NCBI GenBank assembly: GCA_963514005.1
Contig: OY740782.1
Span: 107,260,001-107,324,000 of the forward strand
DNA length: 64,000 nucleotides
Direction of reading: 5' to 3'
From: Raja brachyura
Lineage: Eukaryota
Both the position numbers and the translations under genes were made by a program. Below the pieces are notes generated by a model that saw only the letters and a program-made list of their open reading frames with translations, did no database searches and was not told where the DNA came from. This document shows, piece after piece, positions 6,505-51,300 of the stretch; positions within the stretch are counted from its first letter, which is position 1; every line of letters starts with the position of its first letter.

Positions 6505-7870
6505 AAATACAAAGTGCAGTAAGAACTCAATGGGCCTGGCAGCATCTGCAGAGGAAATAGGCAGACAGCATTTTGGGTGGGGACCCTTCAGACTGATAGG
6601 ATTAGTGAGAAAAAGGTGGGGGTAGGGCAAAACCTGGCAATTGAAAGGTGGATAGACACAAAAAGGTGGAGTAACTCAGTGGGACAAGCAGCATCTCTGG
6701 AGAAAAGGAATGGGTGATGTTTTGGGTCGAGACCCTTCTTCAGTGGGTTTCGACACGAAATGTCACCCATTCCTTCTCTCCAGAGGTGCTGCCTGTCCCG
6801 CTGAGTTATTCCAGCTTTTTATGTCTATCTTCAGTTTAAATCAGCATCTGCAGTTCTTTCTTGCACAATTGATAAGTGGATGTGGGTAAGGTGGGTGATT
6901 CGTAGATGGGTGGATAAATGATGAAGGCTGGGGCTGAAGAGGAATCAAAAGCATGTCCAATAGAAAAATGAGGTGTGAAAAGTCAAGCCAGAGGGAGGGG
7001 TCTGCGGTTGAGTGGCGGAGAAAGGAAATATGGGACACGGGGATGGGAGAGGAGCATTCTGAGGAAGGTGACTGAGGCGGTGTGGGGACAGGGAAAGTGA
7101 AAGAGTAGGGGTGGAATTACTAGAAATTGGAGAATGCATTTACATTGGGATGCAAGTTGTTAAAGTGGGCGGGCTAAGGCTAGAGATGAAAAAGAGACAA
7201 AAGTGTGTCCGATAAACGGAATATGAGTGCTTCCAGTTTACCTTTGGCCTCGCTCTGACAAATGTAGGAGGGTCAAGGACGGAAAGATCGTGCCCAACAG
7301 ACCCTGGCAGACAGAATACAAGTATTTGGTAAAAATGTTTGCCCATTCTAAGCTTGTTCCTGCTGAAGAAGGCCACATAGGGAACACAGAATGCAGTAGG
7401 CGTGTGCGCATCGGGGTGAGAGGTTGGGGGAAAATAAGGGGCCCCAATGCGTCCACCTTTCTCCCTTAATCCTGGTAACCCTTTGTGCTCCTCCATAAAC
7501 TTATCTTGCACCCCACACCTTACCCTCCCACCTCCCATTTCACCATGTCTTCCCAATGTCGTTTTTATCGCTATCCCTCACTCTGGATTTATATTTTACT
7601 CCTTTCCTTATCTGACACCTTTTTCATCTCTAACCTTTGTCACTATCTCCACCCATCTGCTAACCCCCCCCCCCCCCCCCACTTGTAACACTTGCCAGGC
7701 TTTGTCCCGCCACCATCTCTCCTTTCCAGCTTTCTCCCCTTCACTAATCTCAAGAAGGGTCTTAACCCAAAATGCAAGTGTCATTTTCATCCACCAATGC
7801 TGCCTGAACTACTGCATTTTTCCAGCACTTTGGTTTTTGCTCAAGATTCCAGTATTTGCAGTTTATTGCC
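6505..7870. mobile_element. Penelope-like element remnant: inverted pair of terminal repeats (minus 6505-7400, plus 7450-7870)
   Basis: Purine-rich and pyrimidine-rich mirror halves, a GIY-YIG C-terminal remnant (RARPKVNWKH, same as at about 29500), and terminal-repeat ends carrying gggtc..accc/gaaa motifs. Confidence 0.7.
6654..6865 (+). mobile_element. Penelope-derived fold-back insertion with 16-bp TSD
   Basis: Inverted arms agacacaaaaaggtggagtaactcag... / ...ctgagttattccagctttttatgtct. Flanks CAATTGAAAGGTGGAT (6638-6653) and CAATTGATAAGTGGAT (6866-6881). Confidence 0.85.
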
Positions 7871-8661
7871 TCCTCTCTAGTGAAAGAACAGGAATGGATT
7901 ACGTTGAAACATGACTACTGAAAATATTATTTTTCTCATAAAGGGAAAATGAGAAAATGTTAAATGAGATTCGTCATTTAATTGAAATTGCTAGAAATAT
8001 TCAGATATTAGCTATTTGATCTAATCCAGTCTATTCAGATGAGATGGGATCTGTGGAAAGAGAAACAAGATTGAGGGTTCAGGTCAGTGAACTTCCATGC
8101 AAATATGTTGTCAGGGGTCTGAAATTTATGTGGGTGCAGACCTTTCTTTGATCTGAAATGTTACACATTGTTTCCCTCTCTTTCTATTCCCCACAGATGC
8201 TGCCTGATCCGATCTTTTACAATATTTTTTCACTTTTATTCCATTACTCTTTTTTAACTTATTGCCTGTCATGTGAAATGATCAAGGTGTGATTATTGTT
8301 TTGGTGGATTGTCAACTACGGGGAGAAAAAGTTATTTTGCAAGGATTTCCACTTTTTTTTCTTGTGCGGTTTCTGTAGTAGTGGCAGAAAAAATTGCACG
8401 GCTAGAAATTCTTCACATTGGGGAAAGATGCAATTGGCCCCTTTAAATTTACAAATAGGGCCCTATTTAATAAATAGCTTGTGCCATTTGTGGGGTTTTT
8501 GTCAAGGCAAATTAATTTTAGGCAGGTTTGACATCAAAATGTGCAAAGCAGCTGATTGACAGCACTGCGCACAAATGCACCCCATCCACATTGATGCCTC
8601 AGGTCAAAATTGTGAGAGTATGCAATGCACATACTAATGACTCATTATGTATAATGTTTTG

Positions 8662-8950
8662 CAGAACCAGGGGCCACAGTTTAAGAATAAGGGGTAAGCC
8701 ATTTAGAACGGAGGTGAGGAAACACCTTTTCACACAGAGAGTTGTGAGTCTGTGGAATTCTCTGCCTCAGAGGCCGGTTCTCTGGATACTTCCAAGAGAG
8801 AGCTAGATAGGTCCCTTAAAGGTAGCGGAGTTGGGGGATATGGGGAGAAGGCAGGAATGGGGTACTGATAGTGGATCAGCCATGATCACATTGAATGACG
8901 GTGTTGGCTCGAAGGGCCGAATGGCCTACTCCTGCACCTATTGTTTTTAT
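8662..8950 (+). mobile_element. CR1 LINE 3' end
   Basis: ORF 8528..8806 contains RTRGHSLRIRGKPFRTEVRKHLFTQRVVSLWNSLP, followed by the 3' UTR ggctcgaagggccgaatggcctactcctgcacct. Confidence 0.9.
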
Positions 8951-9174
8951 ATGAAATGTACTGTGCTTAACAAATTTTGCAACACAAGACAATGTCATTA
9001 TTTCAGCTGCTGACCTGATTTGGAAGCATAGAGTTGATAATTACCAGTTCAATTTTCAATACATTTCTGAGTTTGCTAGCTGGCAACATGCTACTTATGC
9101 TTTCATATACATATTATATGGGAAATATTTTAACAAATTTGTAACAAATTTAACCCAGATATAGGAATGATATA

Positions 9175-9442
9175 AGACAAAAAATGCTGGAGAAATTCAG
9201 CGGGTGAGGCGGCATCTATGGAGAGAAGGAATAGTCGATGTTTCGGGTCGAGATCCTTCTTCAGACTGATGTGGTGGGGTGGGGAAAAAAGAAAGGAAGT
9301 AGGAGGAGACAGTAGGACTGTGGGAAAACTGAGAAGGGGGAGGGGAAGGAGGGAGAAAGCAAGGGATATCTAAAATTAGAGAAGTCAATGTCCATACCAC
9401 TGGGGTGTAGACTACTTCATACCGCTGTGGTGTACACTACTT
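9175..9442 (-). mobile_element. Penelope terminal-repeat fragment
   Basis: Same agacaaaaaatgctggag...cagcgggtgaggcggcatct...gggtcgaga..cttcttcagactg unit as at 27970-28110. A 25-bp tandem duplication (9393-9417, 9418-9442) sits at the truncation point. Confidence 0.8.
9232..9269 (-). ncRNA. Putative minimal hammerhead ribozyme core in a Penelope terminal repeat
   Basis: Minus strand reads TCAGT-CTGAAGA-AGGATCTCGACCC-GAAA-CATC-GACTA (CUGANGA, stem II, GAAA, NUH). Activity unknown. Confidence 0.5.
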
Positions 9443-12332: not shown

Positions 12333-12690
12333 AAGATAGACACAAAGCAGCTGGAGCAATATCCCTGGGGATAAGAAAGGTGGGTGAAGTTTCGGGTCGG
12401 GACCCTTCATCAGTCTGAAGAAGGGTCCCGACACGAAACCTCAGCCATCCTTTTTTTCCCCAGAGATACTGCCTGACCCGCTAAGGTACATTTTGAAGAT
12501 AGACACAAAATGCTGGAGTAACTCAGCAGGACAGGCAGCATCTCTGGGAAGAATGATGTTGGAAGGAACTGCAGATGCTGGTTTAAAACAAAGATAGACA
12601 CAAAAAGCTGGAGTAACTGGGGACAGTGCCCGCAGCCTGCAGATGCATATTTTTTGTGTGTAAACCAGAATCTGTAGTTCCCTATGTCTC
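12333..12690. mobile_element. Nested cluster of Penelope terminal-repeat / fold-back fragments
   Basis: Three copies of aagatagacacaaa..gctggag and a central palindrome gggtcgggacccttcatcag-t-ctgaagaagggtcccgac. Confidence 0.8.
12383..12446. ncRNA. Back-to-back hammerhead-like cores, one per strand
   Basis: Minus strand: CTGATGA-AGGGTCCCGACCC-GAAA-CTTC (from 12413 downwards). Plus strand: CTGAAGA-AGGGTCCCGACAC-GAAA-CCTC (from 12415). Confidence 0.5.
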
Positions 12691-13004: not shown

Positions 13005-13910
13005 TCTACTCAGTGAAAAGATTATCCATGATAACAATCAAGCTACCCACAGGATAACATTTAGTGCAAGATAAGGTCTGGTAAAGTCTGATAAAAGATA
13101 GTCCGAGGATTTGAAGTGAGGTAGATGGTAGGTCAGAACCACTCTGTATATGTTGATAGGATGGTTCAGTTGCTTGGTAACGGCTGGGAAACAACTGTCC
13201 TTGACTCTGGAAGATTTTCACACTTCTGTACCTATTGCCTGATGCAAGAGGGGAGAAGAGGAAGTGACCAGGGCGAGACTAGTCCTTGATTATGCTGTGT
13301 AAGAAGGAACTGCTGTTAAAATCGAAGGTAGACACAAAATGCTGGAGTAACTCAGCAGGTGAGTCAGTATCCAAGGAGAGAAGGCATTGGCGGTGTTTTA
13401 ATTCCTTCTCTCCATAGATGCTGCCTCACCTGCTGAGTTACTCCAGCATTTTGTGTCTACCTTGATTATGCTAGCCTTGCTGAGACTGAGTGATGTGTAG
13501 ATGGAGTCAATGGAAGGGAGAGTGGTTTGTGTGATGGTCTGGACTACATCCATAACACTCTGCGATTTCTTGTGGTCTTGGATGGAGGTGTTCCCAAACC
13601 ATACTGTGATGCATCCCGATAAAGTACTTTCTACGGCACATCTGTAGAAGTTGGTGAGAGTAGTTGAGAATCATGCTGAACTTCTTGGGCCTTTTGAGGA
13701 AGTAGAGACGTTGGTGTGCTTTCTAGGCCCTTGCTTCGATATGGGTGGTCCAGAACAAGTTGCTGGTAATATTTACTCCTAAGAACTTGAAACTTTTAAA
13801 TATCTCTACTTTGGCGCTGTCAATATATTCCAGGGTATGTGTATGTGCTTCACTTCTGAAGTCTATCACAACCTCCTTTGTCTTGTTGACATTGAGGGAA
13901 ATGTTGTTGT
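13005..13910 (-). mobile_element. Rex1/Babar-like LINE 3' portion (RT C-terminus)
   Basis: The minus strand resembles NNISLNVNKTKEVVIDFR...FKFLGVNIT, as in ORF 32260..32475. Interrupted by a fold-back insertion. Confidence 0.75.
13297..13459 (-). mobile_element. Penelope-derived fold-back insertion with perfect 13-bp TSD
   Basis: CCTTGATTATGCT at 13284-13296 and 13460-13472. Arms gtagacacaaaatgctggagtaactcagcaggtgag / ctcacctgctgagttactccagcattttgtgtctac. Confidence 0.9.
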
Positions 13911-13929
13911 CTAATGGTTGGATTTGAAT

Positions 13930-16900
13930 CTATAGGGGAAATTTATCAGATTGACCTGAGGAGCTGGTACAGAGGGTAGGGATTTATATTCTTAGACCAC
14001 TGGGATCTGTTTCGGGGTAAGGGTGAATTGTACAAAAGGGACGGGTTGCACCGTAACAGGTGGGGGACCAGCATTCTGGCAGGCAGGTTTTCCACTGCTA
14101 CACGGGTGGGTTTAAACTAAATAGTAGGGGGGGGAGACAAATTGGAAATACAAGGATAGCGTTAAAGGGAAAGAGTATAGGAAAAGCACCAGAATTAACG
14201 GGACGGAAAGCTCACTAAGGGATAGGAGAGTATGGCCAAGTGAAATAAGAATCAAGGTGAAATGTGAGGTGAGTAATGGATTAAAAGTATTATATATGAA
14301 TGCACAAAGTATAAAAGTAAAGTGGATGAGCTTGAGGCTCAGTTAGAGATTGGTAGATATGACATTGTGGCAATTACAGAGACATGGCTGCAGGAGGATC
14401 GGGACTGGGAACTGAATATTCAAGGTTATATGTCCTATAGAAAGGACAGGCGGGTGGGCAGAGGAGGTGGGGTAGTTCTGTTGGTGAGGGATGAAATTCA
14501 GTCCCTTGCGAGGGGTGACATAGGGAATGACGATGTAAAGTCGCTGTGGATAAAATTGAGGAATTGTAAAGGTAAGAAGACACTAATGGGAGTTATCTAC
14601 AGGCCCCCAAACAGTAGCCTGGGTATGGTGTGCAAGTTGCAGCAGGAGTTAAAATTGGCATGTTACAAAGGTAATGCCACTGTGGTTATGGGAGATTTCA
14701 ATATGCAGGTAGACTGGGAAAATCAGGTTGGTTCTGGATGCCAAGAATGGGTTTGTAGAGTGCCTACTAGAGAGAAGACAATTCTGGATTTACTGTTGTC
14801 TAATGAACCAGATTTAATAAGGAAACTCAAGGTAAAGGAACCGCTCGGAGGTAGTGACCATAATATGATTAGTTTTAATCTGCAATTTGAGAGGGAGAAA
14901 GTTAAATCTGAAGTGTCAGTGTTGCAGTTGAAGAAAGGGGACTATGAAGCCATGAGAGAGGAGCTGGCCAAGGTCGACTGGAAAAGGATCCAAGGAGGAA
15001 TGATGGTGGAACAACAATGGCAGGCATTTCTAGGCATAATCCAGAAGATGCAGGATCATTTCATTTCAAAGAGGAATAAAGATTCTAAGAGGCAACCGTG
15101 GCTGACAAGGGAACTTACGAATGGAATAAAACTAAAAGAAAAGGTGTATAACATAGCAAAGAGTAGAAGGGAAGCCAGAGGATTGGGAAACTTTCAAAGG
15201 ACAACAGAAGGTAACAAACAGGGCAAAACGGGGTGAAAAGATGAAGTACAAGGGTAAACTGGCCAAGAATATAAAGAAGGATAGTAAAAGCTTCTTTAGG
15301 TGTTAAGAGAAAAAGATTAGTAAAGATAAATGTGGGTCCCTTGAAGGCAGAAACAGGTGAAATTATTATGGGGAACAAGGAAATGGCAGAAGAGGTGAAC
15401 AGGTACTTTGGTTTTGTCTTCCTTTCTGAAGACAGAACTAATCTCCCAGATGTACTAGAGGACAGAGGAACTGAAAGAAATTTGCATTAGGCGTGAAATA
15501 GTATTGGGTAAACTGACGGGACTGAAAGCTGATATCCCCAGGGCCTGATGGTCTGCATCCCAGGGTACTCAAGGAGGTGATTCTAGAAATTGTGGATGCA
15601 TTGGTGATCATTTTCCAATGTTCTATAGATTCAGGATCAGTTCCTGTGGATTGGAGGGTAGCTAATGTTATCCCACTTTTCAAGAAAGCAGTGAGAGAGA
15701 AAACTGGGAATTATAGACCAGTTAGCCTGATATCAGTGGTGGGGAAGATGCTGGAGTCAATTATTAAAGAAGTAATAATGACGCATTTGGACAGTAGTAA
15801 AAGGATTGGTCCAAGTCAGCATGGATTTATGAAGGGGAAATCCTGCTTGACTAATCTTCTGGAATATTTTGAGGATGCAACAAGTAAAATGGATGAAGGA
15901 GAGCCAGTGGATGTTGTGTATCTGGACTTTCAGAAAGCCTTTGATAAAATCCTGCACGGGAGACCAGTGACTAAAGTTAGAGCACATGGTATTGGGGGGT
16001 AGGGTGTTGATATGCATAGAGAATTGGTTGGCAGACAGGAAACAAAATTAGGAATAAAAGGTCCCTGTCAGAATCGCAGGCAGTGGCGAGTGGAGTACCG
16101 CAAGGCTCGGTGCTGGGGCCGCAACTATTTACAATATATATTAATGATTTAGATGATGGGATTAAAAGTAATACTAACAAATTTGCAGATGACACAAAGC
16201 TGGGTGGCAATGTGAACTGCGAAGAGGATGCTAGGAGGTTGTGAGTTGGCTTGGACAGGTTGAGTGAGTGGGCAGATGCGTGGCAGATACGATATAATGT
16301 TGATAAATGTGAGGTTATCCACTCTGGCGGCAAAAACAAGGAGGCAGATTATTACCCAATGGTGTCGGATTAGGAAAAGGGGAAGTGCAATGAGTCCTGG
16401 GTGTCCTTCTACATCAGTCACTGAAAGTAAACATGCAGATACAGCAGGCAATGAAGAAAGCTAATGGCATGTTGGCCTTCATAACGAGAGGATTTGAGTA
16501 TAGGAGTAAAGAGGTCCTTCTGCAGCATTGTGTCCAGTTTTGGTCTCCTAATTTGAGGAAGGACATCCTTGCTATTGAGGCAGTGCAGCTTAGGTTCACG
16601 AGATTAATCCCCGGGATTGTCATATGAGGAAAGATTGGGCTTGTATTCACTGGAATTTAGAAGGATGACAGGGGAATCTTATAGAAACATATAACATTAT
16701 AAAAGGACTGGACAAGCTAGATGCAGGACAATGTTCCCAATGTTCGGCAAGTCCAGAACCAGGGCCCACAGTCTAAGAATAAAGGGGAGGCCATTTAAGA
16801 CCGAGATGAGAATAAAAATTTCATCCAGAGTTGTGAATTTGCGGAATTCTCTGAAACAGAAGGCAGTAGAGGCCAATTCACTGGATGAATTTAAGAGTTA

Positions 16901-17891: not shown

Positions 17892-20112
17892 AATAACCAT
17901 ATAACCATATAACAATTACAGCACGGAAACAGGCCTTCTCAGCCCTTCCAGTCCATGCCGACCATTTAATTTCCCCTAGTTCCATCTACCTGCACTCAGA
18001 CCATACTCCTCCATTCCCTTCCCATCCATATACCTATCCACTTTACTTTTAAATGTTAAAATCGATCCTGCCTCCACCACTTCTGCAGGAAGATCATTCC
18101 ACACAGCCACCACTCTCTGAGTAAAGACGTTCCCCCTCATGTTACCCCTAAACTTCTGTCCGTTAATTCTCATGTCATGCCCTCTTGTTGGAATCTTCCC
18201 TACCCTCAATGGAAAAGCTTATCCACGTCAACTCTGTCTATCCCTTTCATCATTTTAAAGATCTCAATCAAGTCCCCCCTTAACCTTCTGCGCTCCAAAG
18301 AATAAAGACCTAACTTGTTCAACCTTTCTCTGTAACTTAGTTGCTGGAATCCAGGCAACATTCTAGTAAATCTCCACTGTACTCTCTCTATTTTGTTGAC
18401 ATCCTTCCTAAGTAGGCGACCAAAATTGTACACCATACTCCAGAATTGGTCTCACCAATGCCTTGTACAATTTTAACATTACTTCCCTACTCCTATACTC
18501 AATGCTCTGATTTATAAAGGCCAGCACACCAAAAGCTTTCTTTACCACCCTATCTACATGCGATTCCACCTTCAGGGAACTATGCACAGTTATTCCTAGA
18601 TCCCTCTGTTCCACAGCATTCCTCAATTCCCTACCATTTACCATGTACGTCCTATTTTGATTTGTCCTGCCAAGATGTAGCACCTCACACTTATCAGGAT
18701 TAAACTCCATCTGCCATCTTTCAGCCCACTCTTCCAAATGGCCCAAATCTCTCTGTAGACTTTGAAAATCAACTTCATTATCCATAGCACCACCTATCTT
18801 AGTATCATCTGCATACTTACTTATCCAATTTTCCACCCCATCATCTAGATCATTGATGTACATGACAAACAACAGTGGACCCAACACAGATCCCTGAGGC
18901 ACCCCACTGGTCACCGGCTTCCAACCTGACAAACAGCCATCTACCATGACTCTCTGGCATCACCCATTCAGCCACTGTTGAATCCATCTTGGCCATTAAC
19001 ACCCAAAGATTGAACCTTCTTAACCAACCTTCCATGGGGAACCTTGTCAAAGGCCTTACTGAAATCCATATAGACAACATCCACTGCTTTACCCTCATCA
19101 ATTTCCCTAGAAACCTCTTCAAAAAATTCAAGAAGGTTTGTCAAACATGACCTTCCAGGCACAAATCCATGTTGACTGTTCTTGATCAGACCCTGTTTAT
19201 CCAGATGCTTATATATATTATCTCTAAGTATTTTTTCCATTAATTTGCCCACTACTGACGTCAAACTAACAGGTCTATAATTGCTAGGTTTATTCTTTGA
19301 ACCCTTTTTAAACCATGGAACAACATGCGCAGTACGCCAATCCTCCGGCACTATTCCCGTTTCTAATGACATTTGAAATATTTCTGTCATAGCCCCTGCT
19401 ATTTCTACACTAACTTCCCCCAATGTCCTAGGGAATATCTTGTCAGGACCTGGAGACATCCACTTTTATATTTTTCAAAAGTGTCAGTACTTCCTCCTCT
19501 TTGAATCTCATAGTTTCCCTTACCTCAGAGTTCAATATCCTTCTCCTTGGTGAATACCGAAGAAAATAAATTGTTTAATATCTCCCCCATCTCTTTTTGC
19601 TCTGCAGATAGCTGTCCATTCTGGCTCTCTAATGGTCCAATTTTATCCCTCGTTATCCTTTTGCTGTTAATATAGCTGTAGAAACCCTTTGGATTTACTT
19701 TCACCTTTCTTGCCAAAGCAACCTCATCTTCTTTTAGCTTTTCTTATTTCTTTCTTAAGATTCTTTTTACATTCTTTATAATCATCTAGCACTTCATTTA
19801 CTCCATGCCTCCTATAATTATTGTAGATATCTCTCTTTTTTCGAACCAAGTGTCCAATTTCCCTTGAAAACCATGGCTCTTTCCGATTGTTACTATTTCC
19901 TTTCAACCGAACAGGGACATAAAGATTCTGTACTCTTACAATTTCCCCTTTAAATGTCCTCCATTTCTCTTCTACATCCTTCCCATAAAACAAAATGTCC
20001 CAATTCACTCCTTTTAAATCATTACGCATTCCCTCAAAGTTAGCCTTTCTCCAATCAAAAATCTCAACCCTAGGTCCAGTTCTGACTCTCTCCATAATTA
20101 TATTGAAACTAA
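17892..20112 (-). mobile_element. 5'-truncated, relatively young CR1 LINE
   Basis: Six consecutive minus-strand ORFs (19724 down to 17976) cover the RT (NYRPVSLTS, GVPQGSVLGPLLF, YADDTKI) and C-terminus. Tail reads ataaccatataaccatataac on the + strand. Confidence 0.95.
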
Positions 20113-21397
20113 TTGTATGCAGGCATCATTCTGGTAAACCACCTTTACACCCTTTTTAAAACCTCCACAATTTTCCTATAATTGGGTGGCCAGAACTGCA
20201 TGAAATACTCCGCCTGATCAAAATATTATAAAACTGCATCATGACTTCCTGACTCTAATATACAATTAATGCAAGCTTACCATATGTCTTTTCTAGTGTC
20301 TACTTATGTTGCCACTTTCAGGGAATCATGAAAGCCAAAAATCCCTTTATTCATCAATGCTGTGAGACATTTGCTAAAATGTCTGGTGAACAAATTAGTC
20401 TGGACTTCTACTCCCTGTGCGTAATATCGCTTTCAATAATACAATGTCAAAGTATACAGCGGAGTTATATGGTATGCTTGCTTTCATAGGTCGGGGCATT
20501 GAGTATCAGAGTCGGGAAGTTATAATGAAACTTTATAGGACTTTGGTTAGGCTGCATTTGGAGCATTGTGTGGAGACAGCGTGACTTTTGTGTGTTTCAC
20601 CCCTCCACCTCCACCTCAAAGACTTGCAGCCCTGCAGCCCAACTGGCCTCTGCAAATTGCCGGCAGAGCCACTGCCCCACAGCGCAAGAGACTCGAGCTC
20701 AACCCGGCCTTGGGGACCTTCTCTGTTGTTATGCTGCACTGTTCTATGTATGTAAGTTTCACAGCACTGTATCAATATTTTGTCTCTTGCAGCTCCAGCA
20801 ATCCCGTTTCAAACCTGACCTTTGGTGCTGTACATGTGGAGATTGCATATTCTCTCTGTGACTGACTGGCATTCTTCTGCAAACTCCGGTTTTCTCCCAC
20901 ACCCGAACCCATGTGGTTTGTACAATTTCACCATAGCAATTTTTGAAATTTCAAAACATATAAACTGATTTTGTGCTAAAACCAAGAAGACATTAAACAA
21001 TTTTAAATAGCCTGATTGTGATGGAATTTGTTTTAAAAAAAGTTAAAATAGGAATGAGCTGCATTTAATGTTTTGTTGAAAGAAATTAATAGTGACTTCA
21101 ATAATAATGATTTTTGTGGAAATCCAGGTGAAGACATGAAAACGACCATTTCCTCTGGATTGTCAGGGATCTTCCAGCAAAGATGCAGTGGGAAATTGAG
21201 TAAACAACCCTTATGGAAATTATATTTCTGTGTGTTCCTCTAATTCACTAAGTCATTCATATATTTTTGATTTTCTTGTTACTTTAAATAATATTTAATG
21301 GTTCCACTGTGACACAAAATTCAGGTTCTGACCTCAATGTTCCTCTATTGCCTAGAAATGTAGTTGCATATTTTTTTTAACCCTAATACTATGTAAA

Positions 21398-37258: not shown

Positions 37259-37527
37259 GATGCTGTTTGTTCACTAATGTTCTCTAACAAACCTCTGAGG
37301 CCTTCGCAGAACAGCTGTATTTACACTGAGATTAGATTACACACAAGTGGACTCTATTTACTAATCAGGTGACTTCTGAAGGCAATTGGTTGCACTTGAT
37401 TTTATTTAGGGGTATCAGAGTAAAGGGAGCTAAATACTTTTGCACGCCACACATTTCAGTTATTTATTTGTAAAAAAATTTGAAAACCATGTATCATTTT
37501 CCTTCCACTTCACAATTATGCGCCACT

Positions 37528-38860
37528 ATAAGATTCGTCAGACATGATTTACCTTTCATAAATTCATGCTGACCTTGTCCAATGGTTCCACCACTTTCCA
37601 AATGTGCTGCTATCCCATCTTTAATAACTGACTGTAGCAGTTTTCCCACTACCGATGTTAAACTAACTGGTCTGTAATTCCCCGTTTTCTCTCTCCCTCC
37701 CTTTTTAAAAAGTGGGGTTACATTAGCTACCCTCCAATCCTCAGGAACTACTCCAGAATCTAAAGAGTTTTGAAAAATTATCATTAATGCATCCACTATT
37801 TCTGGGGCTACTTCCTTATGCACTCTGGGATGCAGCCTATCTGGCCCTGGGGATTTATCGGCCTTTAATCCATTCAATTTACCTAACACCCGACTAACCT
37901 GGATTTCACTTAGTTCATCCATCTCATTTGACCCCCGGTCCCCTGCTATTTCCAGCAGATTATTTATGTCTTCCTTAGTGAAGACAGAACCAAAGTAGTT
38001 ATTCAATTGGTCTGCCATGTCTTTGTTTCCCATGATCAATTCACCTGTTTCTGACTGCAAGCGACCTACATTTGTTTTAACTAATCTTTTTCTCTTCACA
38101 TATCTATAAAAGCTTTTGCAGTCATTTTTTTATGTTCCCTGCCGGTTTTCTTTCATAATCTGTTTTCCCTTTCCTAATTAAACCCTTTGTCCACCTCTGC
38201 TGGACTCTGAATTTCTCACAGTCCTTCAGGAAGCTAAGTACCAGTTCTCCTAGTTCCCTCTGTTCCACAACAGTTCCTAGGCCCCTATCAATCACTATGA
38301 ACATCCTGTCCTAGTTTTACTTCCAAAAATGCAACGTCTCACATTTATCAGCATTAACCATCCTCACTATCCACGACACCACCCATTTTAGTGTCATCTG
38401 CAAACTTACTAATCATGACTTGTGCACTCTCATCCAAATTGGCAATGGTCCCGGCACCGATTCCTGAGGCACACCACTCTTCACAGCCCTCCAGTCTGAA
38501 AACATCCTTCTACCATCACCCTCTGCTTCCTTCCATGGTCGGCTGAGGTTCTAGTGTTTGTGCTGTATGGCCAAGGCAATGAGGATATCATTGCTAATTT
38601 ATCAATGTTATAAAGATAGTTCCGAAACTAAGTTGTGATGAGGATGTAAGTGGGCATCATCGTAAGGAATACAGACAGATTAAGTGAGTGGTCAAAGATC
38701 TGACAAATGGAGTGTAGTATGAGAAAAAATAAAGATGTCAATTGGGATGAAAAGTAAAAAAAGATACACACTATGTAAGTGCGAGAGTTTGCAGAGCTCA
38801 GAGAGGCAGAGGGATCTGAATGTCCTTCTGCATGATTCACCAAAGGCCAGTGTACATGTA
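37528..38860. mobile_element. Mosaic of CR1 fragments enclosed inside the Tc1
   Basis: Minus-strand CR1 ORF2 pieces (ORFs 37494..38099 and 38122..38304), a further minus RT piece at about 38230-38540, and a decayed plus-strand CR1 piece at about 38600-38860. Confidence 0.85.
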
Positions 38861-40840: not shown

Positions 40841-42469
40841 TGAAGAGAACTAGTTATTCTCCGTCATTTATCTAAAATATTGGGTTTAAGTTTTGCCCTT
40901 GGAAATATACATGATCCCTAATAGAAACTGCACCCACTAACCTTATAACTTTTACAAGTACGCAGTAAATTCCTTCAAAAAAGAAAGCAGTGAAATTTAA
41001 GTCCATCATTATAGGCATACAAATCACTCATCTTGGAATACACTTGCCTTACTGCTTGCATTTTACTTCAGATTCCGTGAAGAGGACCCGTCAGATACAT
41101 GGCACAGCGACAGGCTGGATAGCGCAGCTCCACCAGCGGTAAGTTAAAAACTTGCAGGTAAGTTTTTAAACTACACTACGAACGATCCCAGAGTTCTGTA
41201 AGACTGGTTTCAGGAGCCAGTGTGAACATGGATAAACCAGTTAAAGGGAGGTCGAGGCGTGCCGCCGAGTAAGTCAGTGAACTTGACCACGGGAGTGCAG
41301 TCAGTGGGCTTACGCCGCCTCCAGAACTGCCGGCAGATCAACTAGCGGCAGCTACTCCAGTGCCACAGAGTACCATGGCCACTCCAGTCGGGAGGAAGGC
41401 TAAAATAAAATTGGCAAGAGCTGTGGACTCTGATGAGTCAGGCCAAGAGGACTCTCCTCCCACCATGAAAGATGTCTGGGGACGTCTAGACAAAATGGAG
41501 CACCTTATGGAAAGGATACTCCATCATGAGGTGTTACAACCAGAGTGCTATACTCCTGGGTTACCCCAGCAGCCTGCAGCAGCAACCTCCAGCAGAGGTC
41601 TATACAAGGAAGACCTGTACCAACAGGAGGAACCATATGTCCGCGGGTCTGCATGGGGGCCCATACCAGCAGTGCCATGCTGCAGGATACCTCCCTCATG
41701 CATGAGCAGGGAGAGCCAGGGCAGTATGATACTGATCCTGAAGTTGGTGGTATAGCAGAGGAGCATACCCCAAAGCACAAGAGCTTAGCTCCAGGTGTGC
41801 CGGATGTGGCATGCAAATTTTCCAAACTGGCAGGAACTGGTGAGGCAATAGAGGAAAATCTGGCCAGAAACATTAATGACATGACCTCTCACCAGCTCCA
41901 AGAATCAACAATGGATGAAACATCCAAACGATATGAAACACCTGTAAATTGTGCATCACTCAGAGTGCCCACTGTGAACCAGGCCATCTGGTAGCAAATG
42001 GGTGCAACCATGCGATCGCATGAACTAAGGCTGTAGACAGTCTTTAAAGCTAATCAAAGCAGGCATAATGGCATTTGGGCGGTCAGTCGAAGGGGCACCA
42101 CTATCAAGACACACAGCAGGATATGCTAACCCTGCTGTGTAACGCCCACTTTGAGATCAACTGCCTGAGGAAAAACGCCATCAAGCCAACTTTAAATCCA
42201 AATTTTGCAGTACTGTGCAGATCATCTAACATACAGCCATCAAACTTATTGTTTGGTGAAGATCTGGCAATGCAAGTCAAGGACTTAGATGACGAGGCGA
42301 AGACGGTTAGCCTTATCAAAGCACATACGACAAGCAGGATGCCGCCTCATCGACCATACCCCTTCAGGCGGGTCACAGACGCTGGTGCGGGGCAAGGACC
42401 AAGCCGGGCTTTCCCATCACTGCGCCATTGGCATGCACCAGTGCACATTTCCAGCAAAATTAGGAGGCA

Positions 42470-44403
42470 AAATAATCCAGCAACCATGGAGGTACGAGCA
42501 GCTGGACTTGTCCAGGACATATCCTCTAGAGACCAGTCACCAGTAGGGGGAAGATTGCAATTGTTCTACAATGAACAGTGCTGCATAACATCAGATCTGT
42601 TTATAATGGACAGTATCCAGGGGTTTCGAAATGAGTTTATTTTTGAATTACATCCACCTACACAACATACACCAAGTTGGGAATTGGTGTTTTCAAAACC
42701 AGAAACTTTACAGGTAAATGATGAAATTGAAATATTATTCAAAAAAGGGGTAATTGAAAGGACGGCTCATCAGCCTCAGCAGTTTGTGTCTAATATATAC
42801 CCTAAGCAAATGAAGGATGGTGAATGTTGAGTCATTTTAGACCTAACCTGACTGAACTATGTCCAGTATAAACATTTTAAAATGGAGACTTTCAGTACTG
42901 CTAAGCAATTGGTTTCCAAAGGATGTTATATGGCAAGGATAGATCTGAAAGATGCATATTATTCAGTACCAATTCATTACAAATACCGTAGATACTTGAA
43001 ATTTAGTTGGATGAGACAGCTGTGGCAGTTTAAAACGTTGCCTAATGGGTTAACCTCAGCCTCTAGGTTATTTACAAAATTGTTGAAACCAGTATTGGGA
43101 CTACTCCGGGCTCAGAATCACATTGTGATGGCATACTTGGATGATGTTCTGATCATAGGCAACACTCAGGACGCAGCTGAATTTTTTGTTATAGTTACCA
43201 AACATATGTTCGAGAGGTTGGGGTTCCTCATCCATCCAACTAAATCCAAATTGATGCCATCTAGAATCATTGACTATTTGGGGTTCACCATTGATTCAAC
43301 TAACATGTCAGTGACTCTGCCTATGGCCAAACATTTAGAAAGTATGGAGGCTTGCAGCAATCTGGTAGATGAACAGCAACCCTCCATCCGATGAGTGGCT
43401 AGTGTTATTGGCAAATTAGTGGCGGCCTTCCCTGGAGTGCAATTTGGGCCTCTACATTATCAGAATGTGCAATGAGCTAAGGAGCAGGCACTCAAAAAAC
43501 GTAGATCATTTCGATAGACTGATGTAGTTGCCAGTTGAAGCTACCACCGAGTTGCAATGGTGGATAACAAATGTTTCACGTTGTTCTAGTAACATTCTGA
43601 GTAAACAACTTTCAGTTGTCTTGCAAACTGATGTGATTGCTTCGGGATGGGGAGCCACTGATATCAATTCTAGCTGCGGCGGTAGATGGAATATGCAAGA
43701 GGCATTAATCCTACAGATGCATGGGATAAGCTATTTAGAATTGTTGGGGGCATTCTATGGCCTAAAAGCGTACTGTTCAACAATGCATGATTTACATGTT
43801 CAGCTCCAGATTGGCAATACCACAACAGTTGCATATGTTAATCACATGGGTGGAATTAAGTCATTATCATGTGATAATCTGGCTAACCTCATCTAGCACT
43901 GGTGTATTACTAGGAACATCTGGGTCTCAGCAATCTACCTACCAGGTAGAGATAACGTGGTGGCAGACACCAGGTCACATAAGTTTAATGACACACAGAA
44001 TGGATGCTGAATCCAAAAGTTTTTTTAAAGATTGTCACCCAGTATGGATTGCCAGACATAGATCTGTTTGCATCCAGGTTAAGTCACCAGTTACCTAACT
44101 ACGTCTCATGGGAACTGGATCCAGCGGCAGTAGTGGAGGATGCATTCTCACTACATGTTCTTTTGCGCTTTTCCCCCATTCTGCCTCATCAGTCAATGTC
44201 TCACCAACATTAACCAGGACTCCGCTTCAGGCGTCTTGGTGGTCCCCGACTGGCCCACACAGCCACGGTTCCCACTGGTTCTGGGACTGATGACACAGCC
44301 ATTCATGGTTATCCTCAAATGCAGCAACTTGTTGGTTCACCCTGTGGCAGGAGAGATTCACCCTTTACATGATCGTATTAATCTGTTGATTTGCAGATTC
44401 TGA
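42470..44403 (+). pseudogene. DIRS pol: RT, RNase H and adenine-methyltransferase-like domain (stops and frameshifts)
   Basis: ORFs 42882..43394 (RT), 43528..43896 (LQTD..ASGWG, ISYLEL, NTTTVAYVNHMGG), 44004..44213 (IDLFAS, DAF) and 44140..44403 (FPPF, VVPDWPTQP). Confidence 0.9.
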
Positions 44404-44441
44404 CGAGACCGTTCTAGGGGCTCGGACTATCAAGTCGGACC

Positions 44442-45350
44442 GTGGATGTGATTACTGCGTCCTGGAGGGATAGTACTAAAAAACAATACATATCTCATAT
44501 TAAAAAATGGGAGATGTTCTGCTTACAGTCAAATATATCTCATCATACTGCAGGCATACCTGATGTATTGGAGTTCCTTGCTACATTACACTTTGACAAG
44601 CAATTGAGTTATAGTGCCATTAATAGTGCTAGGAGTGCATTGTCCTGCTATTTATGGCAGGGGTCGGGACAACATTCTGTCGGATCTCATCCACTGGTGT
44701 ACCGATTCATGAAAGGTATTTTTAACAAGAACCCTCCTAGACCTAGATATATGGAAATCTGGGATGTGAGCCTAGTTCTCACACTGCTTCGTCAAAGGGT
44801 TCCAATTACATCCAAAAACTAACACTTAAAGTGTCATGCTCATGGCGCTCGTTTCAGCGCAACGGGTCCAGATATTGTAAAAGCTACAACTGGACAGCAT
44901 GCATTCTTCTGTAAATAATATTACGTTTTATGTATATGATCTAATCAAACAAAGCAGGCCAGGAACGTCCGGGACCAAAATGAGCTTTAGAGCATACTCT
45001 ATTGACCTGCGACTATGTGTAGTTACGCACCTACGTCAATATATTGAGGCCACCAAGAGTTTCAGACGCTCCGAAAAACGATGCTCATCAGTCACAAAAA
45101 AACTCATAGAAAGGTGTCGGTGCAGACCATTTCTAGGTGGCCGAAACTGGTTTTAGATTGTGCTGGAGTAGACACTGATGTGTTTAAATCTCACTCCATC
45201 AACATCCGCAGTGAGGGCACTGGACATCCTTTTAGACCAAATCCTCGGGGCCGCAGGATGGTCCAGTGAAAGGACTTTTCAACGGTTCTATAACAGACCT
45301 ATCTTCACAACGGAAGGATTTGGGCATGCTATTTTGGGTTCTGTTTTGTA
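44442..45350 (+). pseudogene. DIRS tyrosine recombinase (decayed)
   Basis: SWRDSTKKQY..., LSYSAINSARSALS, RFMKGIFNKNPP.PRY..IWDV, SAQR, LCVV..LRQYI, TISRW, FKSHS, AAGWSSERTFQRFY. Confidence 0.88.
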
Positions 45351-45546: not shown

Positions 45547-45853
45547 AAAATAGTAAGATTAAACGAGAACTTACCAGTTTAAAGTTTGATCTTTATTTTA
45601 TGAGGAATTAAGGTGAGCGATTACGTGCCCTCCGCTCCCAGCCCTCATAATCGCAAAGATCATCTGGTAGCTCTAGTCTTATGAGTCTTACTATATTACT
45701 TCGACTGTAGTTACTGTGATTTCACGCTGCTGCTTTGAAGATTGACACGCATGCGCACTGGCAGGTCTTCTTCACGTAATCGCTCACCGTAACTCCTCAT
45801 AAAATGAAGATCAAACTTCAAACTGGTAAGTTCTCATTTAATCTTACTATTTT
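45547..45853. repeat. 81-bp inverted repeat: DIRS internal complementary region versus right terminal extension
   Basis: 45547-45627 (aaaatagtaagattaaacgagaacttaccagttt...ttacgtg) is the reverse complement of 45773-45853 with a few mismatches. Confidence 0.95.
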
Positions 45854-46483: not shown

Positions 46484-48059
46484 TTGTCTCAATGGAGATA
46501 TCCCATTGAGACAAAAAAAGGCCCATCAAAATTGTCCTTCTGGAAATCTGGCAGCAAATGTTCTCTGTGACAATTTAATTGAAGGCTCCAGGCAGTAAGA
46601 TTTAAATATATTGTACCGTGATACAGATACAAGGGATGCCCCCAATACATTACCATCTCCACAATAAACAGGGAAGACATCTTCGCTACTTAAACATAAA
46701 AGTTATGTTTGCTGTTCAATTATCTTTTGAATACCAGGTCCCTGAGATAAAGAATCCCCAGATGCTTCACAGCATCAATGTGTTGAGTTTGATTCTGACC
46801 TCTGACATAGTCTGTACAGAGTCTGAACATTCTCTCTGCCAAGATGTGGGATTTCCCCAAGTACTCCAGCTCCATTAAAATGCTCTTGTTGTATAATTGA
46901 CTATTGCAAACGATGAGAGAGAATAAATAACAGCGGTAAAGGGAAATAGTAAGAAGAATTGGACTAATGGGAGCCAGAGTGGGCTTAATGAGCCATACAG
47001 TTTCTTATATATCACCCTAAGTACAGCATTAAAACTGTCCTTTTTAGCCAGAGACATTTCATCCTCATTCATCCTGCCACTCTCATCCCTAGTTGTTCCT
47101 GCTCATTGATTTTGGAACCTCACTCTATGATAGACTGTCTCATTCTCTTTATTAGAGAGTGTGGGGAGAAGGGGGGGGGGGGCTGGGGTTGTGAAGGAAA
47201 ATGGAGAAAACAAAATAGCTCCACCCCATCCTGCTGAAAGTCCCCCACAGGGACCTGTGACATTATTGTCAAGTATTTTCCCTTTTGACTAGATAAAGAC
47301 GATCCAAAGCTTCAACTCCTGCTGCATTCAATGTCAAGAGGATGTCAAGAATATTGTCAATATTTAAAGGTTTCAAGGTCAGTTAATTGTCACACGTACC
47401 AGTTAAGGTACAGTGAAACTTGAGTTATTGGTCCGTTAGATAATACATTGAACTAACACCAGAAAACCGCCCCAAAAAAATTAGTTGAGGGTCTTTCAGC
47501 CACACAGGCCAATTACAGGGTGCCCCCCACTTCAAATTAGGATGATTTGTATCCCTGTCCTACATTAGCAATTTAGCCCCAAGATGTCTAAAATAACTGC
47601 CCTTTAGTTAATTTCCATATCCCTGAACCATCAACGGCCAGGTTTAGACAGATGTTTCCCAGCTGCCTTTCCAAGAAGAACTCAATATATTTTTTTTAAT
47701 GACACGTTTAAGCTGATGTTTTTAAATCGCTGAACAAGTGTAGAAGCATTCTTTTTTTTTTCTTATTCTAGGAGTTTAGGAAGATATTTTCATTTGATGA
47801 AAGGAGCCTTGTAAAAACTTTTCTTATGTTAGTTTAGGAACCAATGTTCAGCTCTAAATATGTCTTGAATGATTTCACTGGTGGATTTCACTGTTCCAGA
47901 ACAGGGGCCAGATTGTGTGTAAAGTCAACTTCAGAGCAAAACAACTCCCTTTTTGGCTAATCCACCCCCTCAGCCAATTCTGATCTCAAAGATACAGTAA
48001 ATTCATAGTTGCCCACTGAGCTAGAAGGAAAATGGCTGTCTTGCCAACACATGCTCTAA

Positions 48060-48264
48060 AGGGCCTGTCCCACTTTCACAACCTAATTCACTACCTTTTT
48101 TACTCGTGGACATTTTTCATCATGCTAGAAAAAACGGCACAACCTACTTGATGCCACGAGTACCTACAACTAGAATTACAGCCTGCTACGATCTACCTAT
48201 GACCATGCTGTGAGTATGAGTCAAGGGCAAACTTGGCTGAGGTCGTGAAAGTGGGACAGGCGCT
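48060..48264. mobile_element. PIF/Harbinger-like MITE (about 205 bp)
   Basis: AGGGCCTGTCCCACTTTCACAACCT ... AGGTCGTGAAAGTGGGACAGGCGCT, flanked by TAA and TTA. Confidence 0.85.
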
Positions 48265-49769
48265 TTACACATCTTGCCAGATCTTCTCTGATATCAAACC
48301 CCAAATCATTTTAGTGAAATTAGAATTAAAGCTGTTGTTGATAATGTTATTGTAGGATTTTCTTTAAGCGCATTTAAAGTCATTAGGTACATAGAAAGTG
48401 AATGTATTACTAATGCATTCAGTATCTATATCATGGTTCAACCATCCACAATTTCTGCACTGATTTTTGCAGTCATGAAGCTTCTGAGGAGTACTTAAAG
48501 AAATGGCAATGGATAAGTGAGACTAAGTCTGCACCAGTCCTGGATTTCTGGGGATCTTCTTGAGAAATGAATGTTATTGTAGAAGATCAGAGCTGCAGAA
48601 ATTAAAAAATTAAGGTTAAAAGGATTTTGTTTTGCTCCTGTGGCTAATTTTCCCATTTATCCATGGTGGGGTGAGTGGTTTACAGAAGAACGTAGCCTGA
48701 AGCCCTGCACTTGGTGCCTTTGCAGCCAGAAAATAATAGAGGAGGTGGAGGTTGCAATCATAAAAGATATATACTGCAAAAAATTACCAAGGGATCATCT
48801 GATGGTATTTTGATAACAATGACAGATTGCAATAATCTCCCATGCTTAGATTGGAAATTTGGTTCACTGTGCTTTAATTGCAAGATAATCTGATACAAAA
48901 GAAGGGGTGGGAGGTTTTGGCCAAAATGTGGGTATGTGTTGCTTTTTGTGGCAGCACATAGTGGGATGAAGGGAAGGAGGGAAACAGATGACTAGACTCA
49001 AGTGAACCTAATATTTGGGATGAATTGTAGAGCTGAAGAACACAAAGACGAAGCAAGGTATTGAGGGATTCATACAAAAACGCAAGAAAGGGAAAATGGA
49101 AGTGCAGAAGGATCGAAGATGTTGCAGGCAAGAAATAAAACACAGAAGCAGAACCTTGTGTCTGATAAGGTACAGATGCAGATCTCATTATAATCGCCCA
49201 AAGGGCGTTTGGTGTTACTAATTGCCACGATAACAGAGTAAGGAATTATCATTGTATAAGTAGCAAAAAACAACTGTAGTTGCTGTACAATACACAAAAG
49301 GACATAAAGTGCTAGAGTAACTCAGCAGTTCAGGCAGCATCTCTGGAGAACATGGATAGGTGACCTTTGGGTCGAGATCTTTCTTCAGATTCTCGGTCCA
49401 GAACTAGGACTGGAATCCAGGTGAGTTGATGGCCCTGGCCAGCTGGTCACCAGGGGAAAGTCGAGGGTTGACGGAGTCAATGGCCGCAGCCCGTGGGCGG
49501 TCATAGTGCAGGTAAAGATCAGGTGGTGACAGGCATGGCCTGGAAGTGGCACGAGACGGTGGCAGCATGGAGCCAGCCAACGCTGCAAGAGGTCAGGGAG
49601 ACTGCGCAAGCCTGGGATGGCACAGGCAGCCACCACTGTAAGAGGTAGGTAAGGTGGTGCAAGCAGAGTTTATTGTAGTTCACATACCTATAAATTGGGC
49701 TCTATCCCCAAAACCAAACTGGTTATAGTTATTATATTATTGAGGCAGTAGCCTCGTGATGTGAGAGAT

Positions 49770-50330
49770 AGAGCTATACAGCACAAAAACAAGCCCTTTG
49801 GCACAACTCATCCTTGCCAACCATGATACCTATTTACTTTAATCCTATATTTCAGTATTCGGCCTGGATTTCTACTCTTCTCCTATTCAAATACCCGACC
49901 AAATGCCTTTTTAAACATTGTAACCATCTCTGCATACCTCCTCCTCCTCAGACAGCTTGTTCCATATAACCATCAACCTGCATGTGACCTTTTGACGTGT
50001 ATAAGATCATGAGGGCTAAATTGAACGTTCACGGTCTTTTCCCTCCCATAGTGGAGTATTCTGAAACTAGAAGGCACAGGCTTAAGGTGAGAGGGGAAAG
50101 ATTTAAGAGGGAACTCAGGGGCAATATTTTCACTCAGAGAGTAGTCTGTATTTGGAATGAACTGCCAATCGAAGCTATAGAAGTGGATACAATTATAACT
50201 TTTAAAATATATGGATAGAAAAGTTTAGAGGGGTCATGGGCTAAATGAGGCAAGTACAGTATGCTAATGATGGCATTGGCAAGGCAAGCCTATGAGCCTG
50301 TTTCCGTTCTACAGCTTTATGAATCTATTA
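49770..50330. mobile_element. Two CR1 3' ends in opposite orientation
   Basis: ORF 49997..50218 TRRHRLKVRGERFKRELRGNIFTQRVVCIWNELP, with an inverted 3' UTR copy at about 49770-49985. Confidence 0.75.
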
Positions 50331-50581
50331 CCAACTCTGATATTTAAAAGTCAGTGCAAGGTGACTCTTTGAATCTGCAGAAACAGCAGCTTTATTATGA
50401 ACCACTGCAGTTGAGATTACGATTGCCACCTCACTATTTAAGAAATTACCATAGATATCAATGCAAAATTCAACATCTTTTAATCCACTCAAACCATTTT
50501 TGTCTAACACTGTGTGTGCCTGTGACTCTCGGTGAAACCATCCTTATTATACCTGCAGTGCATCACTACAACTCACAAGAT

Positions 50582-50792
50582 AGACAAAAAAAGCTGGTGT
50601 AACTCAGCGGGATAGGCAGCATTTCTGGAGAGAAGGAATGGGTGATGTTTTGGGTCGAGTCCCTTCTTCAGAAGTCTCGACCCAAAACATCACCCATTAC
50701 TTCTCTCCAGAGATGCTGCCTATCCCGCTGAGTTACTCCAGCTTTTTGTGTCTTCGGTTTAAAACGGTACCTGCAGTTCCTTCCTACATGAA
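50582..50792 (+). mobile_element. Penelope-derived fold-back insertion with 12-bp TSD
   Basis: AACTCACAAGAT at 50570-50581 and 50793-50804. Inverted arms of about 78 bp. Confidence 0.9.
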
Positions 50793-51300
50793 AACTCACA
50801 AGATGAATCACCATCCACAAACAGGGCTGAGTTGTTCAAAGTTCATTCAGGCATCCAATCATTCTGTCACTGACTGCGACATCAAGCAAGAAAATAAATG
50901 AAACTTAATTTATGAATTTCAATGCATGTTGCTACTTCAAAAGAATAGGGGAAAAAAGGTCACTGTTAAACAAAATGGAAATTCATCTAATCGCTATGTA
51001 ATTTTTATTTGGTTGAAATTAGTTCAGCTGACATCTCAATTTTTCACACTGTGGCATATTCTGTACACTAGGTGATACTGAAAAGATTTTGCTCTATTGG
51101 CGATTTTCACCGAGTAAAATTAACTGTGCACTCAATTTGCTGCACGCTATTTGTTTAAATTAAGATCATATTCCATCCAAATCAGAGAGTGTTGGCATTT
51201 GAAAGAATAATTATAACGTGGAAAATGGTCAATTATGTCTGTCATGGAATGCTATTGAAGAGGATGCAAATATCCTTTGATGTTCTAATGGTAAGCTTAC

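Follow-up and report, generated by a model that had tools for sequence, protein, structure and literature searches.

Head-to-head hairpin insertions of a Penelope-like pseudo-LTR in a 64-kb stretch of the Raja brachyura genome

The 64,000-nt stretch of Raja brachyura DNA analysed here (GenBank assembly GCA_963514005.1, contig OY740782.1, positions 107,260,001 to 107,324,000, forward strand; hereafter the window, to which all copy counts and comparisons are confined) contains six short inserts, termed hairpins, in which two pieces of the terminal unit of a Penelope-like element (PLE) are placed head-to-head. These hairpins are almost certainly products of PLE integration. The best model for their formation, and a reasonably probable one, is the joining of two target-primed cDNAs. 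In all four hairpins that are bounded by target-site duplications (TSDs), one arm is 35–41 nt shorter than the other; we refer to the longer arm as tailed and the shorter as tail-less.

Positions and boundaries of the hairpins

The original prediction had named five places where inverted copies of the unit occur, and an inverted-repeat search found inverted arms at all of them: 6651-6735/6745-6829 (86%), 13325-13388/13400-13463 (92%), 28157-28239/28244-28326 (93%), 50582-50659/50676-50753 (95%) and 52666-52727/52765-52826 (92%). A sixth hairpin, absent from that prediction, gave a match at 12356-12472. The coordinates of the complete features are as follows.

Hairpin 1, 6638-6881: tail-less arm 6651-6743 (−), tailed arm 6745-6867 (+); 3-nt overlap with the target
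Hairpin 2, 13284-13472: tailed arm 13297-13398 (−), tail-less arm 13401-13463 (+); 4-nt target overlap
Hairpin 3, 28142-28377: tail-less arm 28157-28239 (−), tailed arm 28237-28362 (+); 0–1 nt target overlap, 3-nt apex overlap
Hairpin 4, 50570-50804: tail-less arm 50577-50672 (−), tailed arm 50674-50792 (+); 5-nt target overlap
Hairpin 5, 52666-52830: two tail-less arms, 52666-52749 (−) and 52751-52830 (+); no TSD found
Hairpin 6, 12337-12690: arms 12337-12413 (−) and 12410-12490 (+); no TSD found

The main hairpin inserts are 160–210 bp in length, with the 3′ end of each arm abutting target DNA. The spacers between arms are 1–37 nt, and none of the six hairpins retains a remnant of a 3′ untranslated region (UTR). 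Hairpin 6 is interrupted by two more arms, 12495-12556 (−) and 12557-12618 (−), and has a possible tail remnant at about 12650-12690. Penelope-like elements have repeatedly struck their own sequence here: partial arms at 12495-12690 are nested in hairpin 6, and hairpin 1 lies in the 3′ UTR of an older Penelope copy.

Direct repeats of 12–16 bp were found exactly at the ends that had been proposed for the four main hairpins. Hairpin 1 has a 16-bp repeat with two mismatches (6638-6653/6866-6881, score 10), hairpin 2 an exact 13-bp repeat (13284-13296/13460-13472, score 13), hairpin 3 a 15-bp repeat with one mismatch (28142-28156/28363-28377, score 12) and hairpin 4 an exact 12-bp repeat (50570-50581/50793-50804, score 12). 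With equal search freedom, 2 of 1500 randomly chosen site pairs reached a score of 10, and when flanks were cross-paired none of the 20 combinations scored above 4. The AT content of the four TSDs (0.60–0.67, against 0.58) shows no strong bias. The same search found no TSD for hairpin 5, with a best score of 4, or for hairpin 6. The hairpin 5 site (52667) had been listed as a probable copy, of which the inverted arms were borne out and the TSD and arm asymmetry were not, both arms being short. A 12-bp repeat at 52650/53637, considered as the bounds of a larger insert, was not counted; it lies in a DNA-transposon-like element with internal repeats.

For two of the six sites tested, the window holds paralogues of the empty site. 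Hairpin 2 lies in a LINE-like (long interspersed element-like) repeat, and its empty site is spanned by a paralogous repeat at 32416-32734; the empty site of hairpin 1 is spanned by the Penelope 3′ UTRs at 7623-7715 and 29204-29251. All of these paralogues lack the insert, and therefore the flanking repeats are duplicated target. For the remaining four, the window yielded no empty-site paralogue.

A profile built from the arms detected 26 pieces of the terminal unit in the window, of which 23 were tabulated and three weak ones (8184-8212, 25110-25177 and 53286-53348) were excluded. The following copies stand outside the hairpins.

21402-21465 (+), with flanks 21389-21473: solo tail-less arm with a 9-bp TSD (21389-21397/21465-21473)
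52934-53068 (−): solo tailed arm, stopping at the hammerhead 5′ edge (see below); no TSD found
49265-49389 (−): older solo tailed arm, stopping at the hammerhead 5′ edge; no TSD found
27488-27546 (−): older solo tail-less arm fragment
6504-7870: old and long pair of Penelope 3′ fragments placed head-to-head, about 6504-7400 (−) and about 7620-7870 (+), hosting hairpin 1

The TSD of solo 21402 scored 9, which was equalled by 3 of 1500 null sites. A TSD search extending up to 2.5 kb, made for seven solo or long arms, gave best scores of 6–8, inside the null range (5–20 of 40 sites). The left end of the long pair is tail-less and the right end tailed, as read by eye, giving the hairpin layout at a scale of about 1.4 kb.

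The repeated unit is a Penelope pseudo-LTR with a predicted hammerhead

In three copies, the unit follows endonuclease coding sequence and a 3′ UTR in the same sense.

29025-30592 (−): longest Penelope copy, with the end and thumb of the reverse transcriptase (RT), a CX4CxxC linker, a GIY-YIG endonuclease (CCHH-type cysteines), the 3′ UTR and a tailed terminal unit
27641-28110 (+): 5′-truncated Penelope copy, with the endonuclease C-terminus (27647-27733), the 3′ UTR and a tailed terminal unit
9175-9421 (−): 5′-truncated Penelope copy, with the endonuclease C-terminus (9342-9413) and a tail-less end

These copies identify the repeated unit as the PLE pseudo-long terminal repeat (pLTR), contiguous with PLE endonuclease coding sequence. 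The original prediction of a Penelope terminal unit and of a retroelement origin is supported. The longest copy is broken by stops and frameshifts and retains only the end of the RT. A Pfam scan of its three decayed frames found no families, and a word-indexed protein search with 29822-30121 gave 61 candidates, none at E 0.001. A phmmer search with 29890-30582 returned 25 proteins (best E 5e-13). Domain scans of seven of these matches found GIY-YIG in four and RVT_1 in three, and tblastn of the best match back to the window gave E 2e-41 over 29670-30592. The best relative of the long copy is a protein of the stingray Hypanus sabinus, whose own nearest listed relatives are from rays and sharks.

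CX4CxxC and CxxC motifs were read in 29822-30121, and the relatives carry the same motifs. A CX2-5CxxC linker before a C-terminal endonuclease with CCHH cysteines is shared by Neptune and Nematis and absent from Poseidon (PMC8557442). The linker therefore excludes Poseidon and fits either Neptune or Nematis. Neptune is preferred over Nematis because only Neptune and Poseidon are reported in vertebrates (10.64898/2026.07.22.740005), and the element would thus be a Neptune-type endonuclease-bearing PLE.

The pLTR also carries a predicted minimal type-I hammerhead, which the original prediction had overlooked.

27977-28010 (+): example hammerhead, with core CUGAAGA, a bulged A, a 5-bp helix II, GAAA, a CG palindrome, a UC cleavage triplet and a helix I of 2–3 bp

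The CG palindrome takes the place of helix III. In an alignment of 17 arms, C3 and U4 were each conserved in 12/12, G5 in 10/11, A6 in 11/11, G8 and A9 each in 13/13, A13 and A14 each in 15/15, U16.1 in 12/15 and C17 in 14/15. G12 was present in 7/14, the rest having A (a CpG-type decay), so that core conservation spans 50–100%. Helix II was 87% paired in the same alignment, with no covariation above shuffles. An Rfam scan of the window gave 11 matches, all under the gathering score and mostly microRNA models on hairpins, and none to a hammerhead. A strict hammerhead descriptor found only two intact motifs in the window, against 0–2 in shuffles, and folding of the unit in five sequences gave z values of −1.7 to +1.4, showing no unusual stability.

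Arms end at one of two sites

Arm positions were numbered from the C of the hammerhead core (+1). Of the 23 tabulated arms, 11 have their 3′ end at a short site and nine at a long site (+120 to +132); a nested insertion interrupts one other at +73, and two old ones had decayed too far to be placed by the aligner. Of the 11 short ends, nine were placed automatically at +91 to +97, with those of 21402 (+105) and 27488 (+84) set by eye. No arm ends in the gap of 35–41 nt between the two sites. Clustering as tight as that observed, with the hand-set values included, arose in 0 of 400000 uniform draws. The arm at 13297 appears shorter because of a 7-nt deletion. The asymmetry of the arms is the published Penelope ‘tail’.

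The proposal of a fixed stop for the inverted arm therefore agrees with the bimodal ends, while the proposed distance of 30–35 nt was an underestimate. The short end had further been regarded as a second-priming site only. This does not hold, since a solo short arm has its own 9-bp TSD (21389-21473) and two short arms make up the insert at 52667. The short end also terminates the open reading frame (ORF)-linked copy at 9175-9421.

Eight nucleotides of the tail could pair with eight in the body of the unit, for example in 28036-28098 (+). The resulting helix would enclose the inner start site; 60 of 69 cells were paired in nine tailed arms, with one double change and no covariation support.

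Target overlap at the tail-less end

Overlaps were read by eye, comparing each junction with the empty site and a tailed arm. At the short end, the overlap with the target was 3 nt (6654), 4 nt (13297), 0–1 nt (28157) and 5 nt (50582), and at the 13297 junction four more nucleotides match after a one-base bulge. The null mean overlap was 0.64 nt. For the four hairpins, the summed overlap of 12 gave P = 2.1e-4 in a fixed register and P = 1.4e-3 if any of seven registers was allowed. Overlap of the tailed end with the target, also read by eye, was 0–2 nt. The earlier observation of short target homology where the inverted arm stops was thus reproduced, at 3–5 nt in three of the four hairpins; the short-end microhomology is real for this set of four, with one hairpin lacking it.

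Inner ends cluster at the hammerhead

The inner ends of the two arms lie at +1/+9 in hairpin 1, +22/+33 in hairpin 2, +12/+5 in hairpin 3, 0/+11 in hairpin 4, −2/+17 in hairpin 5 and about +1/−4 in hairpin 6. The apex does therefore differ between copies, as had been proposed, with six different apexes in six hairpins; it is not free, however, since the apexes cluster at the 5′ edge of the hammerhead. Relative to the first base of the core, the innermost point falls between about −4 and +5 in five of the six. The reach upstream of the core is about 4 nt at most in the 12 hairpin arms, and two solos end at this edge as well. In contrast, five ORF- or UTR-linked arms extend 150–1450 nt beyond that limit. 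The limit on synthesis at the ribozyme 5′ edge could be set by the RNA 5′ end, a splice acceptor or a structural stop. In long copies the core is preceded by AG, and in Drosophila virilis Penelope an intron ends at helix I (PMC4209133).

Inverted complementarity at the apex amounts to 3 nt in hairpin 3 and 4 nt in hairpin 6, the latter being joined at a near-palindrome that overlaps the start of the hammerhead core; the other four hairpins are ambiguous. The idea that the inner ends mark the ribozyme cleavage site was dropped, as only three arms start near it (+33 to +35, compared with +29) and most run through.

Hairpins derive from several subfamilies

The 12 hairpin arms are 62–76% identical to the terminal unit of 29025-30592. 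The arms of hairpin 3 are both 95% identical to the 27641-28110 copy (clade support 100/99), and the 9175-9421 copy shares 91% identity with the short arm of hairpin 2. In each of these two hairpins, which belong to distinct subfamilies, both arms are of the same subfamily type. Hairpins 1, 4 and 5 form a third type, in which sister arms are no closer to each other than to arms of other loci. In a tree of 19 arms, two of 16 inner branches were well supported and only the hairpin 3 subfamily was resolved.

Two parts of the original prediction are not supported by these comparisons. The hairpins had been attributed to a single family, and the arms fall into at least three subfamilies. They had also been seen as a non-autonomous partner of the 29025-30592 Penelope, whose terminal unit the arms match at 76% identity at most, two hairpin types being tied to other endonuclease-coding copies. 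The view that hairpins are built anew at each integration is supported; they would be made singly, rather than copied as complete units. The hairpin form has thus arisen again and again from several PLE subfamilies.

The only three arms that represent one of the subfamilies, 93–95% identical, all lie within 27641-28377, as the ORF-linked tailed copy followed 47 bp away by hairpin 3. This cluster represents either one complex event or local re-targeting; no TSD was found for the 27641-28110 copy. An exact 26-nt pattern from the unit had no matches in bacterial and archaeal genomes.

Proposed formation of the hairpins by double target priming

In vitro, the RT-endonuclease of a Poseidon PLE, a predicted dimer, cuts and extends both target strands, with synthesis beginning at two neighbouring positions inside the RNA that mark the limits of the tail (PMC11167929). 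In the model that we favour for the hairpins, a staggered cut would leave two 3′ overhangs of 12–16 nt, and an antisense cDNA would be primed from each. One cDNA would usually begin at the outer site and the other at the inner site, the inner-site start being aided by 3–5 bp of target–RNA pairing. Two RNAs, or displacement on one RNA, would have to supply the templates, because both cDNAs copy the same 60–100 nt. Both cDNAs would stop after 60–135 nt, at or in the hammerhead, and their 3′ ends would be joined through 0–4 nt of inverted complementarity, with repair filling in. A separate non-autonomous element is not needed in this model. The meeting of each arm's 3′ end with target DNA is what would be expected if each arm were a target-primed cDNA, and either start site is usable alone or twice, as in solo 21402 with its TSD and in hairpin 5. 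The original prediction had placed one priming event at the RNA 3′ end, which may not hold: in the one Penelope studied in vitro, both start sites are internal (PMC11167929).

We tentatively suggest a more specific form of double target priming, which is possible rather than probable. The hairpins would be run-off products of the ordinary PLE transcript, begun at its 5′-proximal start sites: a Neptune RT-endonuclease dimer would prime on both overhangs, pair the inner site with 3–5 nt of target (unlike Poseidon in vitro) and run to the RNA 5′ end or to a splice junction at the hammerhead 5′ edge, after which the cDNAs would be joined. If this were true, double target priming would be the normal PLE route to the second strand and to inverted repeats. 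Ray and shark genomes would be expected to hold many such tiny copies, from which the cut stagger, the start sites and the RNA 5′ end could be mapped at single-base resolution.

Several points weigh against double priming or blur its evidence. The data come from one 64-kb window with only four TSD-bounded hairpins, and TSDs are absent from two of the six hairpins and from all seven other arms searched. The target overlap is only 0–1 nt at hairpin 28157 and 1 nt at solo 21402, and apex complementarity is clear in only two of six hairpins. Poseidon initiates at RNA sites that are not homologous to the cut DNA (PMC11167929). For the commonest subfamily (hairpins 1, 4 and 5) the window holds no ORF-linked copy, sister arms are often not mutual best matches, and the source may be a short non-coding RNA. 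Finally, the reach of the arms towards the apex, used below, could be blurred by later apex deletion.

An unlikely but serious competitor is a single priming event, after which the cDNA, or else an antisense template of the kind suggested for PLEs of rotifers, would snap back at a palindrome in the hammerhead region, be copied outward and be joined to the second target end by microhomology 35–41 nt short of the start. Such end joining would leave the microhomology that is seen, sister arms share a subfamily type, the junction lies at a near-palindrome in hairpin 6 and at an inverted match of 3 nt in hairpin 3, and palindromes at inverted junctions have been taken as self-priming (PMC3846280). 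A simple fold-back of one cDNA, however, requires the tailed arm to reach further in. This is so in hairpins 2 and 3, and not in hairpins 1 (+9 compared with +1) or 4 (+11 compared with 0) unless apexes were later deleted; the tail-less arm of hairpins 1 and 4 holds inner sequence that is missing from the tailed arm and that copy-back cannot supply. Moreover, the short end is also found in solo copies (21402 and 9175) and so acts as a start site, and two start sites have been shown biochemically (PMC11167929). Rather less likely still, and compatible with double priming, is a dedicated short non-coding RNA of about 135 nt starting from the hammerhead. Such an RNA would be a non-autonomous derivative of a PLE, similar to solo retrozymes, and corresponds to the ‘partner’ of the original prediction. 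The halt of all 12 hairpin arms and two solos at the hammerhead edge and the missing ORF-linked copy of the commonest subfamily would agree with it, and non-autonomous pLTR-derived retrozymes occur in vertebrates, including one cartilaginous fish (10.64898/2026.07.22.740005). Yet two hairpin-making subfamilies do have ORF-linked copies at 91–95% identity, the arms match the 29-kb copy at 76% or less, and no head-to-tail array of the unit was present among the 26 profile matches.

We regard it as very improbable that the hairpins are longer head-to-head PLE inserts whose centres were later deleted. Long inverted repeats are prone to deletion and a long pair of the same asymmetry does exist in the window (6504-7870), but the short spacers hold no 3′ UTR in any hairpin and the inner ends pile up at the ribozyme rather than scatter. 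The idea of a miniature inverted-repeat transposable element (MITE) moved by a cut-and-paste transposase draws only on the small size and palindromic look of the inserts, and hardly deserves credence: the termini differ by 35–41 nt instead of matching to both ends, the TSDs are long and variable (9–16 bp) instead of short and constant, the six apexes and at least three subfamilies leave no shared interior, and the unit is contiguous with PLE endonuclease coding sequence.

Comparison with known systems

An inverted pLTR with a 30–40 nt tail on one end is the general PLE scheme (PMC8557442; also PMC8969392). Rotifer (Adineta) Pen2/Pen2a has inverted pLTRs, a 31-bp tail and 8–10 bp TSDs (PMC3846280), and Drosophila virilis Penelope a 34-bp repeat (PMC2377424). 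The hairpins resemble endonuclease-bearing PLEs in their head-to-head pLTRs, tail at one end, variable TSD and palindromes at some inversion junctions. They differ from known PLE inserts in having nothing between the pLTR pieces, the whole insert being 160–210 bp, and in their TSDs of 12–16 bp. The overlap between target and tail-less end is not described in the covered parts of PMC3846280, PMC8557442 and PMC2377424.

Poseidon of Anolis carolinensis likewise uses two adjacent internal start sites that delimit the tail, about 100 nt downstream of the hammerhead, and its template is uncleaved RNA (PMC11167929); most hairpin arms also run through the predicted cleavage site. Poseidon, however, is of a different clade, without the CX2-5CxxC linker, and initiates without homology to the cut DNA, whereas three of four hairpins show 3–5 nt. 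The covered text of PMC11167929 contains no model for the inverted arm. The predicted ribozyme shares with the minimal metazoan PLE hammerheads of PMC4209133 the core, a bulged base before helix II, the G10.1-C11.1 pair and the palindromic 15.2/16.2, and differs from them in its 5-bp helix II and 2–3 bp helix I. Pairs of hammerhead motifs on opposite strands, 100–700 bp apart, were reported in Schistosoma in 2014 (PMC4209133) and were not analysed there as TSD-bounded insertions.

In L1 twin priming, as in our model, both overhangs prime, the second anneals inside the RNA, and an inversion is left between TSDs (PMC9148063). The first L1 primer, however, anneals to the poly(A), and the second site is variable (PMC9148063). 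The hairpins have no poly(A), and their second site is fixed 35–41 nt away, with both arms copying the same stretch. The arms of L1 twin-priming products are not known to overlap. Hairpin formation works like twin priming but is not L1.

Non-LTR retrozymes are also short, non-coding and pLTR-derived, with a type-I hammerhead, but form head-to-tail arrays (10.64898/2026.07.22.740005), whereas the hairpins are head-to-head pairs with tail asymmetry and TSDs. Among the 26 profile matches in the window, there are no two or more head-to-tail units with complete hammerheads; the only same-strand neighbours, at 12495-12618, are partial and ribozyme-less.

The overall architecture and the two-start-site logic (2024) were already known. 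What is added is a minimal, apparently common form in a Neptune-type element and two details not found in print. Within the literature covered, which leaves older Penelope structure papers outside and is to that extent weak evidence, there was no published description of TSD-bounded two-arm minimal PLE hairpins, of microhomology at the tail-less end or of the apex limit. How PLEs come to have inverted repeats and a second strand is still described as undefined (PMC8557442), and the later steps of integration are left unvalidated by the in vitro work on Poseidon (PMC11167929). The hairpins are small natural records of PLE insertion, which repeat annotators would label as MITEs or microRNA hairpins. 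With a length of 160–210 bp, such an insert fits into a single short read together with its two target junctions and its inversion point, and the 64-kb window has six hairpins. Tabulating copies across the genome could therefore distinguish double priming from snap-back and show whether Neptune enzymes use target–RNA pairing.

Other elements in the window

An exon for a thrombospondin type-1 repeat (Pfam TSP_1, E 1e-10) lies at 28730-28905 (−), presumably from a semaphorin-5-type gene; the exon has the same sense as the long Penelope copy, whose end is about 100 nt upstream. The endonuclease region of that copy contains an insertion of about 130 bp (29532-29683) with an exact 12-bp TSD (29532-29543/29672-29683) and a short tetranucleotide-repeat end; it resembles the 3′ end of an RTE-type LINE.

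The DNA-transposon-like element at 52362-53750 has terminal inverted repeats of about 45 bp (52367-52408/53703-53744). Inside it lie hairpin 5, the solo arm at 52934 and another, decayed arm (53286-53348); a similar terminal-inverted-repeat motif bounds 48057-48267. A true MITE-like family is represented by two related elements of about 306 bp, 45547-45853 and 56282-56587, with 80-bp terminal inverted repeats (94% and 99% complementary) separated by 145–146 nt.

The remaining elements were identified by eye.

42069-44822 (+): decayed ORFs, DIRS-type-like, with RT/RNase H and tyrosine-recombinase-like stretches
36429-37124 (−): 231-aa fragment of a Tc1-like transposase
14277-16002, 18408-20125, 37494-38129, 55714-56292 and 61136-61750: numerous CR1/L2-like LINE fragments with endonuclease/RT stretches

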